In this document: in pieces, positions 45,817 to 53,302 of the stretch
How the letters are laid out: every line of letters begins with the position of its first letter
Position numbering within the stretch: position 1 is the first letter of the stretch
NCBI RefSeq assembly: GCF_988243305.1
Contig: NZ_OZ547136.1
Direction: 5' to 3' (one strand)
Length of the DNA: 64,000 nucleotides
Made by a program: the position numbers and the translations under genes
Notes under the pieces: generated by a model
The model's database searches: none
What the model saw: only the letters and a program-made list of their open reading frames with translations
Told to the model about the DNA's origin: nothing

Positions 45817-47025
45817 TTAAAGGGAGCCATGCGCCTCACGCAACATTTTCTGCTCTGGCTGACGAATCGTCGTAGAGAGCGCCAGTGACAGAATCAGCAG
45901 GGCGAAAATCACGTAGAAGGTCACATAGAAGCCGCCAAACAGTGAGGCGATAATCGACCCACAAATGCTGCCGATACCGAAACCGAGATAAATCACACCG
46001 TAGTTTTTCGCCAGGTTATTGAGGCCGAAGAACTCACTGACCAGTGACGGGAACACCGTGATAGTGCCGCCAAAGTTAAACGCCACGCAGGCAATCGCTG
46101 CAAAGAACGTCACTGCATTCAATGGTGCAAACAGCAGGGCCGCCATACCCACCAGCGAAATCACCTGACCAATGGTGATAACACGGATTCGGGCGATTTT
46201 GTCAGACAGTATCCCCAGAACCAGACGACCTGAAAGGTTGGCGATGGAAATAACAGTGACTGCATTGGCTGCGGAAACCACATCAAGGTGTGCCAGACTT
46301 TGGGCGATATCTTTCGCTACCCCAATCACGTACAGGCCGCTCATGCAGGCAGTCAGGAACATTACCGCTAACATCCAGTACTGCGGTTTACGCATCGACT
46401 CTGCCAGCGTGTAATCTTTCTCCACGACACCATTGCTGGTTTTCACTTCCTGTTTTGGTGCGTCTTTCATTAACGTTGCGCCGAAAACAATCATCACCAG
46501 CGCAATCGCTCCCCAAATCACAAATGTTTTTTCCAGACCCACCGTTTCCAGCAGCTGCGTGTCGATAAATTTGAAACCCAGGCTACCCAGACCATAAGAA
46601 CCGATAGCGAACGCGGAGATCAGACCTTTACGCTCCGGAAACCACTTCACGCAGTTAGAGAGCGTCAGCAGGTAACCCGCGCCATCCGCCAGACCGACCA
46701 GCACACCGGCGCTTAACCACAGCATCATCAGGTTGTCAGAATGCGCTGTCAGGAAGAAGCCTAATCCCAGCAAAATGCCGGAAGCCATAGTGACGCGTTT
46801 AACGCCAAAACGTTCCTGTAATTTCCCCGCAACAGAAGATGAAATTGCCAGCCCCAGACTTAACAAGCCGAAAGAGAAAGCGACCTGGCTTACCGGCGCA
46901 TCCAGCTTGGCAGAAAGCGCGCCGTTAAACAGGCTCCAGGTATAAACCGACCCCAGCGCAAACTGGGTAATGATAGTACCGATGAGTGTCAACCAGCGGG
47001 TACGCTGATAATTTGAAGGTGTCAT
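45817..47025 (-). CDS. yhjX: MFS transporter (oxalate/formate antiporter-like; pyruvate-responsive YpdAB target), 402 aa
   Basis: ORF track 45817..47070; canonical start MTPSNYQRTRWLTLIG at the internal ATG (47025). Confidence 0.93.
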   Translation of the reverse strand: MTPSNYQRTRWLTLIGTIITQFALGSVYTWSLFNGALSAKLDAPVSQVAFSFGLLSLGLAISSSVAGKLQERFGVKRVTMASGILLGLGFFLTAHSDNLMMLWLSAGVLVGLADGAGYLLTLSNCVKWFPERKGLISAFAIGSYGLGSLGFKFIDTQLLETVGLEKTFVIWGAIALVMIVFGATLMKDAPKQEVKTSNGVVEKDYTLAESMRKPQYWMLAVMFLTACMSGLYVIGVAKDIAQSLAHLDVVSAANAVTVISIANLSGRLVLGILSDKIARIRVITIGQVISLVGMAALLFAPLNAVTFFAAIACVAFNFGGTITVFPSLVSEFFGLNNLAKNYGVIYLGFGIGSICGSIIASLFGGFYVTFYVIFALLILSLALSTTIRQPEQKMLREAHGSL

Positions 47026-47108
47026 GGCAGTATTCCTGCAGTAATAAAAAGGAAAAATCTCTGCTGACAACCATAACGAAGTGCACTTTATGCCTGGGGA
47101 AAAACGGC

Positions 47109-47139
47109 ATGAAATGCCATCAGAACGGAATGAAATGCA
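47109..47139 (-). promoter_or_regulatory. YpdB (LytTR response regulator) binding site: direct repeat GGCATTTCAT-N11-tGCATTTCAT upstream of yhjX
   Basis: Minus strand contains two copies of the motif in direct orientation with an 11-bp spacer, about 85-115 bp upstream of the yhjX start. Confidence 0.75.
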
Positions 47140-47253
47140 TTAGTTCAGGAATGAATGACTCGACAATTATTCACTAAATTTATTATTTAGTAAGTTAGCA
47201 CCCACTATCGCCACAACTGTTGTTATCCAATGGTTTCAATTGTATCTATAACG

Positions 47254-47952
47254 TTAAAATCTGGCACTAACCCCCATCGTATACAGATAGTCGCTATTGT
47301 TAGTGGTATTTTCTGCCTGAGATAGCGCAGCATAGGCAGCAATATTTTGATTGAGCAACATATCAGCGCCTACGGTGACATCCAGCCAGTTGCCGTTCTG
47401 GTTTGTCGCCGTCATCCGGCTCAGGCCTGATTGCGCCTTCCAGATATTCTCGCCAAATTGCTGGTTATAGCTGATTTGCGCCCAGGGTCGGAGATCGCCA
47501 AGCCGGGAGTCAACACGCCAGCCTAAGGTACTCACGCTGGCATGCCATAACGGATCGGCCAGCGTGGTAGTACTGTCGCCAAACTCGTTATACATCGAGG
47601 TGGTTGTGCCATCGTAATGTAATGCCGCGACCGGGCCGGTTGTAACCTGCTCATATAAAGGAAAATTCCAGCCCATACTCATACTGCTGGTCACATCCAC
47701 AGGAGTTTCTTCCGCCAGATTGACTTCCAGTCCCAGCGCCCTTTGGCTACTTTGAATACGTTGCGACAAAATATCGTTGTAATCAGGTTGGTGATCACTA
47801 TCCCAGGTGTAACGCTCTGTGGAATGTCCGGGTTGCGTATCAACGATATATTCTTGTTGCCAGGCGTAAGCTGTGTTGAGAAAAAAGGCACTGATTACCA
47901 CACTCGCCAGCAGGCTTAGCTGCCAGCGACCACCGCTTTTTTTTATGATCAT
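47254..47952 (-). CDS. yhjY: Outer-membrane beta-barrel (autotransporter-like beta domain) protein, 232 aa
   Basis: ORF track 47254..47958 begins with GTG; start placed at the ATG two codons in (MIIKKSGGRWQLSLLASVV, signal peptide); C-terminal Phe as in outer-membrane proteins. Confidence 0.9.
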   Translation of the reverse strand: MIIKKSGGRWQLSLLASVVISAFFLNTAYAWQQEYIVDTQPGHSTERYTWDSDHQPDYNDILSQRIQSSQRALGLEVNLAEETPVDVTSSMSMGWNFPLYEQVTTGPVAALHYDGTTTSMYNEFGDSTTTLADPLWHASVSTLGWRVDSRLGDLRPWAQISYNQQFGENIWKAQSGLSRMTATNQNGNWLDVTVGADMLLNQNIAAYAALSQAENTTNNSDYLYTMGVSARF

Positions 47953-48109
47953 TAACACGACTCCAGGGAAGAGCCGAATTCGGCAATATTATTGTCATTG
48001 TATGAAGGATATCGGGCATAGTAGCCCTGTATTAAATATTGACTTTTTCACCGATGCGTCAAGAAAAGCGGCTGAAATTTTTACGATCGGGTACATAGCG
48101 AGGGAAAGT

Positions 48110-48673
48110 ATGGAACGTTGCGGCTGGGTGAGTCAGGACCCGCTTTATATTGCCTACCATGATAATGAGTGGGGCGTGCCTGAAACTGACAGTAAAAAAC
48201 TGTTCGAAATGATCTGCCTTGAAGGGCAGCAGGCTGGATTATCGTGGATCACCGTCCTCAAAAAACGCGAAAACTATCGCGCCAGCTTTCATCAGTTCGA
48301 TCCGGTGAAGGTGGCTGCAATGCAGGAAGAGGATGTCGAAAGACTGGTACAGTACGCCGGGATTATCCGCCATCGCGGGAAAATTCAGGCAATTATTGGT
48401 AATGCGCGGGCGTACCTGCAAATGGAACAGAACGGCGAACCGTTTGCCGACTTTGTCTGGTCGTTTGTCAATCATCAACCACAGGTGACACAAGCCACAA
48501 CGTTGAGCGAAATCCCTACATCTACGCCCGCCTCCGACGCTCTATCTAAAGCCCTGAAAAAGCGTGGTTTTAAGTTTGTTGGTACCACAATCTGTTACTC
48601 CTTTATGCAGGCATGTGGGCTGGTGAATGATCATGTGGTTGGCTGCTGTTGCTATCCGGGAAATAAACCATGA
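48110..48673 (+). CDS. tag: DNA-3-methyladenine glycosylase I, 187 aa
   Basis: ORF track 47873..48673 is over-extended; canonical start MERCGWVSQDPLYIAYHDNEWGVP at the internal ATG (48110), with AGGGAAAG upstream. Confidence 0.95.
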   Translation: MERCGWVSQDPLYIAYHDNEWGVPETDSKKLFEMICLEGQQAGLSWITVLKKRENYRASFHQFDPVKVAAMQEEDVERLVQYAGIIRHRGKIQAIIGNARAYLQMEQNGEPFADFVWSFVNHQPQVTQATTLSEIPTSTPASDALSKALKKRGFKFVGTTICYSFMQACGLVNDHVVGCCCYPGNKP

Positions 48674-49110
48674 TTCGGGAAGCGCAACGTTCAGAACTCC
48701 CCGCGATCCTCGAACTGTGGCTGGAAAGTACAACCTGGGGGCATCCCTTTATAAAAGCGAATTACTGGCGTGATTGCATTCCGCTGGTGCGGGATGCCTA
48801 TCTTGCCAACGCGCAAAACTGGGTCTGGGAAGAAGACGGTAAGCTTCTCGGTTTTGTCAGCATTATGGAAGGCCGATTTCTGGCTGCAATGTTTGTCGCA
48901 CCGAAGGCCGTCAGACGCGGTATTGGTAAGGCGCTAATGCAGTATGTGCAGCAGCGCCATCCCCATCTGATGCTGGAGGTTTATCAAAAAAATCAACCGG
49001 CGATAGATTTTTACCATGCGCAAGGTTTTCACATTGTCGACTGCGCATGGCAGGATGAAACCCAACTACCCACCTGGATTATGAGCTGGCCGGTGGTTCA
49101 AACGCTGTAA
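48670..49110 (+). CDS. yiaC: GNAT-family N-acetyltransferase (protein lysine acetyltransferase YiaC), 146 aa
   Basis: ORF track; start overlaps the tag stop (ATGA); GNAT motif RRGIGKALM. Confidence 0.93.
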
Positions 49111-51412
49111 GTGTCAGTTCCGGACCGTTGTATTTTTCCAGCCATGCCAGCGCCGTATTACCCGCACAGCCATTCCCTAGCCGCGAGCTGGGGAGATCTT
49201 TGGTCAGAACGTTCACCGCGCCGTTTTTACAAATACCGTCAGCGGTTAAATCCAGATCCGGCCATGCCCCTTCATGAATACAAATCACGCCAGGTTTAAT
49301 TCCCTCGCTAATGACCGCTCCGGCAAGAATTTGCCCGCGTGCGTTCCACAACCGAACAATATCGCCATCTTGTATGCCGCGCGCCTGGGCATCGTCAGGA
49401 TGAATGGTAACAGGCTCACGATTTGCCACCGCGTACAATTCGCGCAGAGAACTGTAATTCAGCTGGCTGTGCAGACGATGTGCCGGATGAGCAGAAAGTA
49501 CCTGCAACTGTTCCGGTTCGGCATTGCCCTGCCATTCGTCCGGTTCCAGCCACATTGGATGCCCAGGGCAATCCGGATAAGCGTAATCGGCAATACGCTG
49601 CGAGAAGATTTCAATCTTGCCGCTGGCGGTTTTTAATGGATGCGCCTGCGGATCGCGGCGAAAATCGGCGAAGCGAATAAACCGCTCGCTGTCCGGGTTT
49701 TCCGGTATCTCAATTAACTGGTTGGCTTGCCAGAACTCAGCAAATGGCGGCAATTCAACCTGCTGGCTTGCCCCGCGCTGCCGGGCAACGTTATAAAACG
49801 TTTCCAGCCATTGCAGCTCACTTTTTCCTTCCGTAAACCGCGCATAGCCGCCCTTCTCCCAACGTTCACTCAACTCGGCAAAGACATCAAAATCATTACG
49901 CGCTTCATAACGTGGCGGCACCACTTGTTTCATCGGCACCAGATGCTGATTGCTGTAATCGCCGGTCATGGTGAGATCATTACGCTCAAACGAAGTGGTC
50001 GCAGGCAGAACGATATCCGCGTGTTTCGCCGCCGCCGTCCAGAAGCATTCAGAGATCACCACCAGCTCCGGTTTTTGCCAGGCACGGATCAGGCGATTGG
50101 TATCCTGATGATGAGTAAAGTTGGCACCGCCCGCCCACCAGATAAAACGAATATCCGGGAAATGTCGGTTCATACCGTTGTGTTGATATGCGCCACCAGG
50201 GTTTTCCAGTGCTTCAACAATGCGGGCAACAGGGATTTTATCTACCGCATCGGTGCAGCCAGGCAAGCTGCCCTGCATGGAAGAGAGCACCGCAGCGCGG
50301 CGCGTGGGGTTACCACCATTGGCAAAATGGTAAGAAAGTCCAAAACCGCCGCCGGGTGTGCCGATTTGCCCCAACATTGCCGCCAGCGTGACGATCATCC
50401 AATGTTTTTGCTCACCAAACTGTTGACGCTGCATTCCCCAGCCAGCCATCAGCATGGTCGTGTTTTGGTGGAAAAGAGCCGCCAGCTCGCGGATTTTCTC
50501 TGCGTTAACCCCACAAATCCCTGCCGCCCATTCGGCGGTTTTGGCTATTCCGTCACTCTCGCCCAGCAAATAAGAGGCGAAGACGGCATAACCGGTGGTG
50601 CAACGCGCCAGAAACGCTTCGTCGTGCCAACCATTTTCCACCAGCGTATGGGCGATCCCCAGCATCAGCGCAACATCGGTGCCCATGTGCGGTGCCACCC
50701 ACTCCATTTTATCGCCAAAGAACTCAACGGTTTCCGATCGCATTGGATCAATGCAGATCAGCTTTTTCCCGCTGTCACGCAGTGCAGAAAAGTAAGAAAG
50801 CCCCTGCTCATCGGATGCATTCCACGCAATTTTCAGCGTATTGAGTGGGTTAGCACTCCACAGCACCACGACATCGCTATGTTCCAGCACCAACGGCCAA
50901 CTGGTTTGCTGTTGATAAACTTCGCTGCCACCCACGACATACGGCATGATCGCCTGTGCCGCGCCGGTCGAATAATCCCCCAGATGCCCGGTATAACCGC
51001 CTGCCAGCGCCATATAGCGTTGTAATAATGTCGAGGCCTTATGCAGCACGCCGTTTGAACGCCAGCCGTAGGAACCAGCAAAAATCGATGCCGGACCATA
51101 AGCCTCACGAATGCGTTTATGTTGTTGGTGAATAAGCTCCAGCGCCTCATCCCAACTCACACGAACAAATTCATCCTGCCCGCGAATGCCTTGCGGTTTT
51201 TCCGGTGACGCGAGAAAGCCTTTGCGCACCATTGGAAATCGTACCCGCGTATTGCTGTGAACCTGGTCGCGAACCGCGCTCTGCAAGGAGTTTTCCATTC
51301 CTGTGGTTAACGCGCCACGCGAGCTAAGCACGGTTTCGCCGTCAGTTTCAACCAGCATGGGCCCCCAGTGGGCGGCAGTCAGAACGGAATATCGTGAGGA
51401 TGAGTTGGCCAA
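49079..51412 (-). CDS. bisC: Biotin sulfoxide reductase (molybdopterin oxidoreductase), 777 aa
   Basis: ORF track; recognised as BisC ([26 protein letters not shown]...); the first codon at 51412 is TTG, not ATG. Confidence 0.92.
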
Positions 51413-51564
51413 ACCGAAGACTCCTGAAAGGTTAGATGTATTGAGCAGTTAAATATTACTTACAAATTTCCGAGTATTCCCAGGAATAATCTTCATGTTC
51501 ACGCGGCATAATCTCCCGCCACGGAACCCGTGGCAAAGAATAAAAAGGTTATTAAGGATTAACA

Positions 51565-52224
51565 ATGAAGAAACGTGTTTATCTTATTGCCGCCGTAGTG
51601 AGTGGCGCTCTGGCGGTATCTGGCTGCACAACTAACCCTTACACCGGCGAACGCGAAGCAGGTAAATCTGCTATCGGCGCAGGTCTGGGCTCTCTCGTTG
51701 GCGCGGGTATTGGTGCGCTCTCTTCTTCGAAGAAAGATCGCGGTAAAGGCGCGCTGATTGGCGCAGCAGCAGGCGCAGCTTTGGGCGGCGGCGTGGGTTA
51801 TTACATGGATGTGCAGGAAGCGAAGCTACGTGACAAAATGCGCGGCACTGGTGTTAGCGTAACCCGCAGCGGGGATAACATTATCCTCAATATGCCGAAC
51901 AATGTGACCTTCGACAGCAGCAGCGCGACCCTGAAACCGGCAGGCGCTAACACCCTGACCGGCGTGGCAATGGTGCTGAAAGAGTATCCGAAAACGGCGG
52001 TTAACGTGATTGGTTATACCGACAGCACGGGTGGTCACGACCTGAACATGCGTCTCTCCCAGCAGCGTGCGGATTCCGTTGCCAGCGCGTTGATCACCCA
52101 GGGCGTGGACGCCAGCCGCATCCGTACTCAGGGCCTTGGCCCGGCTAACCCAATCGCCAGCAACAGCACTGCAGAAGGTAAGGCGCAAAACCGCCGTGTA
52201 GAAATTACCTTAAGCCCGCTGTAA
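51565..52224 (+). CDS. yiaD: OmpA-family outer-membrane lipoprotein YiaD, 219 aa
   Basis: ORF track; lipobox LAVSGC; Gly-rich linker; OmpA-like C-terminal domain (NRRVEI). Confidence 0.94.
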   Translation: MKKRVYLIAAVVSGALAVSGCTTNPYTGEREAGKSAIGAGLGSLVGAGIGALSSSKKDRGKGALIGAAAGAALGGGVGYYMDVQEAKLRDKMRGTGVSVTRSGDNIILNMPNNVTFDSSSATLKPAGANTLTGVAMVLKEYPKTAVNVIGYTDSTGGHDLNMRLSQQRADSVASALITQGVDASRIRTQGLGPANPIASNSTAEGKAQNRRVEITLSPL

Positions 52225-52232
52225 TCCCTTTC

Positions 52233-52275
52233 ATGCCAGGTGATGCAGAAATCACCTGGCATTCTTCAGTTTTCC
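52233..52275 (+). terminator. yiaD intrinsic terminator (atgccaggtgat gcagaa atcacctggcat followed by T-rich tract)
   Basis: Perfect 12-bp inverted repeat beginning 9 bp after the yiaD stop. Confidence 0.8.
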
Positions 52276-52327
52276 TTCATCATATTTCAGGCTAAGGTGA
52301 TCGCCTTATCAGTGAATGGAGAGAAGC

Positions 52328-53302
52328 ATGAAGCCGTCCGTTATCCTCTACAAAGCCTTACCTGATGATTTACTGCAACGCCTGCAAGAGCATTTCACCG
52401 TTCACCAGGTGGCAAACCTCAGCCCACAAACCGTCGAACAAAATGCAGCAATTTTTGCCGAAGCTGAAGGTTTACTGGGTTCAAACGAGAATGTTGATGC
52501 CGCATTGCTGGAAAAAATGCCGAAACTGCGTGCCACATCAACGATCTCCGTCGGCTATGACAATTTTGATGTCGATGCGCTTACCGCCCGAAAAATTCTG
52601 CTGATGCACACGCCAACCGTATTAACAGAAACCGTCGCCGATACGCTGATGGCGCTGGTGTTGTCTACCGCTCGTCGGGTTGTGGAGGTAGCAGAACGGG
52701 TAAAAGCAGGCGAATGGACCGCGAGCATAGGCCCGGACTGGTACGGCACTGACGTTCACCATAAAACACTGGGCATTGTCGGGATGGGACGGATCGGTAT
52801 GGCGCTGGCACAACGTGCGCACTTTGGTTTCAACATGCCCATCCTCTATAACGCGCGCCGCCACCATAAAGAAGCAGAAGAACGCTTCAACGCCCGCTAC
52901 TGCGATTTGGATACACTGTTACAAGAGTCAGATTTCGTTTGCCTGATCCTGCCGTTAACTGATGAAACGCATCATCTGTTTGGCGCAGAACAATTCGCCA
53001 AAATGAAATCCTCCGCCATATTCATTAATGCCGGACGTGGCCCGGTGGTTGATGAAAATGCACTGATTGCTGCATTGCAGAAAGGGAAAATTCACGCTGC
53101 CGGGCTGGATGTCTTCGAACAAGAGCCACTGTCCGTAGATTCGCCGTTGCTCTCAATGGCCAACGTCGTCGCAGTACCGCATATTGGATCTGCCACCCAT
53201 GAGACGCGTTATGGCATGGCCGCCTGTGCCGTGGATAATTTGATTGATGCGTTACAAGGAAAGGTTGAGAAGAACTGTGTGAATCCGCACGTCGCGGACT
53301 AA
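52328..53302 (+). CDS. ghrB: Glyoxylate/hydroxypyruvate reductase B (D-2-hydroxyacid dehydrogenase), 324 aa
   Basis: ORF track 52316..53302; canonical start [14 protein letters not shown] at the internal ATG (52328); NAD-binding GIVGMGRIG. Confidence 0.95.

Follow-up and report, generated by a model that had tools for sequence, protein, structure and literature searches.

Two oppositely oriented genes, yiaC and bisC, meet tail to tail in the analysed window (the whole stretch of DNA, 64,000 nucleotides). The locus raises the questions of whether the end of each gene truly lies inside the other, whether their overlap is a regulatory device or is held in place by the two proteins, and whether bisC begins with TTG. 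In the initial annotation, a convergent 3' overlap of 32 bp at 49079-49110 was claimed, along with antisense overlap of both mRNAs and a bisC frame opening with TTG at 51412. The position and length of the overlap were confirmed by the listing of open reading frames, by the sequence and by the RefSeq geometry:

48110-48673, + strand: tag, for 3-methyladenine DNA glycosylase I, upstream of yiaC in the same operon and overlapping it by 4 bp (ATGA); mapped RefSeq annotation
48670-49110, + strand: yiaC coding sequence, GNAT lysine acetyltransferase of 146 aa, ATG start, stop TAA at 49108-49110; open reading frame listing, NF007853, RefSeq and PMC6199490
49079-49110, both strands: dual-coding overlap of 32 bp, with YiaC from I137 (part) on the + strand and BisC from L768 (part) on the - strand
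49079-51412, - strand: bisC coding sequence, biotin sulfoxide / Met-S-sulfoxide reductase of 777 aa, stop TAA at 49081-49079; open reading frame listing, TIGR00509, PDB homologues and RefSeq

The gene order around the overlap was yhjY, tag, yiaC, bisC (convergent), yiaD and ghrB, on an E. coli chromosome, and was the same in the RefSeq annotations of strain AST215, the best match, and of K-12 MG1655. For K-12 MG1655, RefSeq gave yiaC (3713652..3714092) and bisC (complement of 3714061..3716394) the identical 32-bp overlap and a BisC of 777 aa initiated with TTG; this TTG and the sequence upstream of it were identical to the window. Of 5426 complete E. coli genomes, 5419 matched a 3-kb query over the region along 80% or more of the query (best identity 99.3%), and 5416 contained a 46-mer across the overlap. 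As a pair located on opposite strands with the 3' ends of their coding sequences in common, yiaC and bisC are a convergent overlapping gene pair. The overlap and the TTG start are already known features, present in the reference annotation, and the antisense overlap of the transcripts is catalogued in the literature (PMC12288877). The 4-nt overlap of tag with yiaC and their operon arrangement were described in the paper identifying YiaC as a lysine acetyltransferase (PMC6199490).

Family models, PDB homology and constraint on synonymous sites show that neither partner is a mis-called open reading frame and that each gene is real as far as its annotated stop. BisC scored 1101.8 bits (cutoff 1017.55) against TIGR00509 (bisC_fam; S- and N-oxide reductases of the TorA/DorA type) over residues 13-775, and solved structures of TorZ and DorA (PDB) aligned with it from residue 7-10 to residue 774-775 of 777. 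Because this homology runs to residue 775 of 777, the C-terminal BisC residues encoded in the overlap (TAFEPPA) belong to the fold of the whole family. YiaC scored 268.4 bits (cutoff 125) against the NCBIfam equivalog NF007853 over positions 1-145 of 146. Together with the synonymous-site constraint, this match spoke against a YiaC protein ending sooner than its open reading frame, which the initial annotation had considered. The AlphaFold2 model of YiaC (24 homologues) had a mean pLDDT of 94.8, decreasing to a block mean of 60 in the tail at residues 141-146, and its last beta-strand partly entered the overlap:

49066-49089, + strand: codons of the last YiaC beta-strand, residues 133-140 (LPTWIMSW), with the final 11 nt inside the overlap; AlphaFold2 model
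49090-49107, + strand: codons of the YiaC C-terminal tail, residues 141-146 (PVVQTL), of low confidence and variable except for Q144-T145

Residues P134, T135, W136, M138 and W140 of YiaC were invariant in the family alignment (24 homologues). With distant homologues (35-44% identity), the alignment reached residue 140-141 and was followed by short variable tails. From these limits of strand and tail, the overlap holds the end of the YiaC core (11 nt), a tail of 6 codons and the stop on one strand, and it corresponds to the last 10 codons of BisC on the opposite strand. A YiaC tail resulting from meaningless read-through into bisC was ruled out, since part of the final beta-strand is encoded in the overlap and since W140, Q144 and T145 hold synonymous sites of bisC invariant.

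The phase of the overlap places codon position 3 of yiaC opposite position 2 of bisC, and position 1 opposite position 1, with no site free in both frames. In the codon alignment of 11 lineages, third positions of bisC were invariant in 9% of the codons outside the overlap vs 4 of 10 inside it, and among codons with an invariant amino acid in 24 of 482 outside vs 3 of 7 inside (Fisher p = 0.0045). Third positions of yiaC were invariant in 9% of the codons outside vs 8 of 10 inside (Fisher p = 1e-6; 11 lineages). The synonymous sites of bisC that never varied were those opposite W140, Q144 and T145 of YiaC, which argues for a YiaC tail that is translated and partly constrained; synonymous-site invariance in the overlap likewise argues that the tails of both proteins are translated and constrained. 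The variable residues of the YiaC tail (P/Q/R141, V/A142, V/D/G143 and L/P/R146) changed through substitutions that were silent or conservative in BisC. The open frame as such was not improbable, and this idea was discarded: read antisense through bisC, the yiaC frame had 17 stops in 777 codons, and 81% of its 10-codon windows were stop-free. It is the conserved stop-to-stop geometry together with the synonymous-site invariance, and not the open frame alone, that goes beyond chance. Elsewhere in bisC, an antisense open reading frame of 432 aa was observed (window 49727-51025, + strand), which had 366 aa in K-12 and 291 aa in Escherichia sp. MOD1-EC7003. Its length differs among closely related strains. 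It resembles a typical shadow open reading frame of a GC-rich coding strand.

Each of the 13 Enterobacteriaceae lineages examined had a yiaC/bisC overlap of either 32 or 38 bp. In five Escherichia lineages other than E. coli, neither stop was displaced, and the 32 bp showed 7 substitutions. In eight further Enterobacteriaceae loci, yiaC and bisC converged with an overlap of 32 bp when YiaC had 146 aa (Salmonella, Citrobacter amalonaticus, a Raoultella/Enterobacteriaceae locus (L010), Enterobacter ludwigii and Pseudescherichia) and of 38 bp when it had 148 aa (Kosakonia, Lelliottia and Phytobacter). A scan of contigs with YiaC, a single-protein pattern that reaches close relatives only, gave five Escherichia loci, and the other genera were reached by protein search and contig look-up. 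Two more distant lineages, with a YiaC 41-44% identical, had tag-yiaC intact and bisC absent from the site, with about 450-550 bp after yiaC. Since these outgroups had neither bisC nor the overlap, the overlap goes with the presence of bisC beside yiaC. As judged from the sequences compared, it appears to have been in place from an early ancestor of the Enterobacteriaceae sampled onwards.

In the outgroup loci (L016-L019; YiaC 41-44% identical), the order was glyQS-(TauE)-tag-yiaC, followed by ghrB-like or GDT1 and yiaD genes, without bisC; one outgroup yiaC started with GTG. It appears from this arrangement that bisC either entered the site between yiaC and yiaD or disappeared from the outgroups. 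At the other end of yiaC, the overlap with tag was 4 bp (ATGA; window 48670-48673) in the E. coli sequences examined and 20-23 bp in other Enterobacteriaceae genera (L008-L015, 3501-3523; gene calls), being 23 bp in 7 of the 8 loci. The longer overlap resulted from a tag gene 5-6 codons longer (192-193 aa vs 187), so that yiaC was overlapped at both ends in those genera.

The observations at the junction probably correspond to an ordinary, annotated tail-to-tail overlap of two real genes, which is frozen in place, forces antisense 3' ends on the mRNAs and is accompanied by a conserved weak start codon in bisC. In this arrangement, yiaC closes the tag-yiaC operon and bisC converges on it, and one stretch of 32 bp carries the final 10 codons of both genes, one set on each strand. 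The arrangement would be no younger than the common ancestor shared by the Enterobacteriaceae examined. The overlap would be held in place because each stop lies in the coding sequence of the other gene, and moving either end alters the other protein. For the same reason of geometry, the 3' ends of full-length yiaC and bisC mRNAs are antisense to each other over 32 nt or more. The claim of antisense 3' overlap of the mRNAs thus followed necessarily from the positions of the stops, and it agreed with a published RNA-seq list: yiaC-bisC is one of 165 convergent pairs whose transcription ExcludonFinder (2025) found to overlap in at least 50% of 58 MG1655 transcriptomes (PMC12288877).

The scan for promoters and terminators found no terminator in or adjoining the overlap and no site of either kind at the junction, and neither kind was more numerous than in shuffles. 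As no terminator separates the genes, both transcripts must run into the opposite gene before they end, most likely by Rho-dependent termination, RNA polymerase collision or decay of the read-through. The Rfam scan of 47000-53000 found no family, with a single chance snoRNA-like match below the threshold. Folding around the overlap was no more stable than in shuffles on either strand (z-scores of -0.67 and -0.05). On each side of the overlap there was a hairpin within the opposite gene:

49173-49195, + strand: terminator-like hairpin, 63 nt past the yiaC stop, in the bisC codons for LPSSRLG; 9 pairs and a weak T tail
49011-49053, - strand: hairpin in the bisC-sense orientation, within yiaC codons 26-68 nt beyond the bisC stop, without a U-tract

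It is very improbable that these hairpins are embedded terminators, that is, that the one at 49173-49195 (+ strand, for tag-yiaC) and the one at 49053-49011 (- strand, for bisC) were selected to stop or position RNA polymerase in the opposite gene. Both hairpins can form in most lineages, and 86-89% of their cells were paired vs 14-64% with the partner slid, but column shuffles paired as well. Across 14 loci, paired cells of the + strand hairpin were 88.9% vs 87.6% in shuffles (98 of 500 shuffles reached the observed value; 1 compensatory cell), and those of the - strand hairpin were 85.7% vs 86.2% (401 of 500 shuffles; no compensatory cell). With at most one compensatory cell in either, the two hairpins were unsupported as selected elements. 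The conservation of their arms results from the conserved amino-acid motifs that they encode (LPSSRLG in BisC; YHA and AWQ in YiaC). The + strand hairpin was flagged as terminator-like, although neither hairpin was followed by a proper U-tract, and a stem-loop has been reported as necessary to position polymerase collisions (bioRxiv 10.1101/2022.10.23.513370), but the - strand stem was imperfect in K-12 and the z-scores for folding of the region were not significant. A perfect inverted repeat of 9 bp was observed inside yiaC at 49016-49052 of the window (CCATGCGCA / TGCGCATGG). K-12 had two differences in the 5' arm of the repeat, in yiaC codons 116-118, which weaken it.

There was no evidence for a dedicated regulatory device at the overlap. 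The excludon concept is reportedly that of Sesto et al. in 2013. That the overlap is kept exactly from genus to genus could also stem from selection for antisense regulation, and yiaC and bisC might in that case form a functional excludon, with the tag-yiaC and bisC transcripts controlling each other reciprocally by polymerase collision or by cleavage of the duplex by RNase III; this was considered unlikely. The overlap was kept in all Enterobacteriaceae examined, which dual-coding constraint fully explains. Expression of both yiaC and bisC is low, so that collisions and duplexes would be rare. Head-on collisions have been reported to drive termination at convergent pairs (bioRxiv 10.1101/2022.10.23.513370). 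The pair is in the convergent list of ExcludonFinder, but that listing is based on coverage overlap only (PMC12288877). Conserved RNA structure or covariation was not found in the scans of the region. BisC repairs oxidised methionine. A physiological link is conceivable, in that YiaC has been reported as up-regulated in oxidative stress (PMC6199490). The more specific proposal, in which transcription of tag-yiaC (with an oxidative stress-induced YiaC) and of bisC (repair of oxidised free methionine) would be antagonistic through collision or RNase III, is quite unlikely. If it were true, protein acetylation and DNA repair would be coupled to methionine sulfoxide repair across Enterobacteriaceae. 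Reciprocal control mediated by the overlap would add one more validated excludon and no new principle.

Convergent overlaps are a recognised minority class in E. coli, with 75 of 663 overlapping adjacent pairs (PMC4161906), and have usually been attributed to movement or loss of the stop codon. Like yiaC and bisC, those pairs are on opposite strands with common 3' ends and conserved partners, and their overlap is more conserved than flanking synonymous sites. There was no difference in kind; in yiaC/bisC, the exact stop-to-stop geometry was kept across genera. Excludons also consist of neighbouring convergent genes with transcripts overlapping in antisense, and the pair is on a published E. 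coli list (PMC12288877). However, classic excludons have long antisense untranslated regions and demonstrated reciprocal expression, whereas the overlap of yiaC and bisC is forced by the coding sequences and the pair is known from coverage overlap. Bidirectional intrinsic terminators between convergent genes, reportedly described by Ju et al. in 2019 with SEnd-seq, likewise serve two converging transcription units in little space (Wang et al. on collisions, bioRxiv 10.1101/2022.10.23.513370), but they consist of a GC stem-loop with A- and U-tracts between the stops, and yiaC/bisC had no intergenic space and no terminator at the junction. The added value of the present locus is modest: the geometry and the TTG were conserved across the Enterobacteriaceae sampled, and it is a clean, small example of dual-coding constraint.

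At the other end of bisC, the TTG opening of the frame was borne out by the open reading frame listing, by the K-12 RefSeq annotation and by conservation in 14 of 15 loci. The features on which it was assessed were:

51410-51412, - strand: bisC initiation codon TTG; open reading frame listing, K-12 sequence and conservation
51421-51425, - strand: Shine-Dalgarno motif AGGAG, 8 nt upstream of the bisC TTG; read from the sequence
51508-51536, - strand: candidate sigma-70 promoter for bisC (TTGCCA-17-GATTAT), a consensus match only (9 of 12)

Upstream of the TTG, the bisC frame had a TAA followed by 12 codons without ATG, GTG or TTG. With no canonical start between this TAA and the TTG, the TTG is the first canonical start, and no second ATG, GTG or TTG codon occurs before the conserved N-terminal TAAHWG block. 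Homology of BisC to the TorZ and DorA structures and to TIGR00509 began at BisC residues 6-13. Thus bisC resembles genes initiated with UUG in having an in-frame TTG upstream of a conserved N-terminal domain and a Shine-Dalgarno motif 5-10 nt upstream. Among the 15 loci, from 9 genera, the 14 with TTG each had an AGGAG-like motif 7-9 nt upstream, and AGGAG, CAGGAG or CGGAGAG was at a similar distance before the bisC start in all other genera. The codons surrounding the TTG diverged across the 15 loci. A 41-mer centred on the TTG was present in 5080 of 5426 complete E. coli genomes; the others probably carry differences at further positions of it. Versions with ATG, GTG or TTA in place of the TTG were present in none of the 5426 complete E. 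coli genomes, the search with TTA having used the E. coli 41-mer, from which one Escherichia locus with a TTA (L005) differs at further positions.

The initial annotation had named an alternative downstream start of bisC as a possibility. An annotation artefact, with an unused TTG and the real start of BisC at the downstream ATG (Met19, 759 aa), is extremely improbable. For Enterobacter ludwigii and the Escherichia locus with TTA, automatic gene calling returned a BisC of 759 aa. Against such a start, the next in-frame ATG (Met19) falls past the invariant TAAHWG block, whose alignment matched it to the N-termini of mature DorA and TorZ as well as to position 1 of TIGR00509. In addition, Met19 was Ile in Salmonella and Val in Citrobacter amalonaticus, and the TTG and Shine-Dalgarno motif were kept in both of them and in E. 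ludwigii. Because the TTG and its Shine-Dalgarno motif were conserved and Met19 lay past the HWG block and was replaced in two genera, calls of 759 aa starting at Met19 are, by sequence comparison, mis-started. BisC was absent from the supplements of the TRAINSPOTTER N-terminomics work, and no paper on the BisC start was found by title or abstract.

Translation of bisC would then start at a conserved UUG preceded by a good Shine-Dalgarno motif. Since UUG initiates less strongly than AUG, its conservation most likely keeps BisC synthesis low. Other E. coli genes initiated with UUG likewise have a good Shine-Dalgarno motif and are kept as UUG in orthologues, and bisC was nothing unusual among them. 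The AUU start of infC has a known autoregulatory role; none was indicated for the UUG of bisC.

Two variants of bisC were observed among the Escherichia loci. In a divergent Escherichia (NZ_JAATUR010000010.1, 'E. coli strain SCPM-O-B-8794'), the initiation codon was TTA and not TTG (L005:6241-6243), with the Shine-Dalgarno motif and the entire N-terminal coding sequence intact. A sequencing error, an early stage in the loss of BisC, or very weak initiation at a non-canonical codon could account for this TTA. In Escherichia sp. MOD1-EC7003 (L003:3521-5809), BisC had an in-frame deletion of 15 residues (residues 291-305 of the window protein) and a length of 762 aa, with the overlap and the TTG unchanged.
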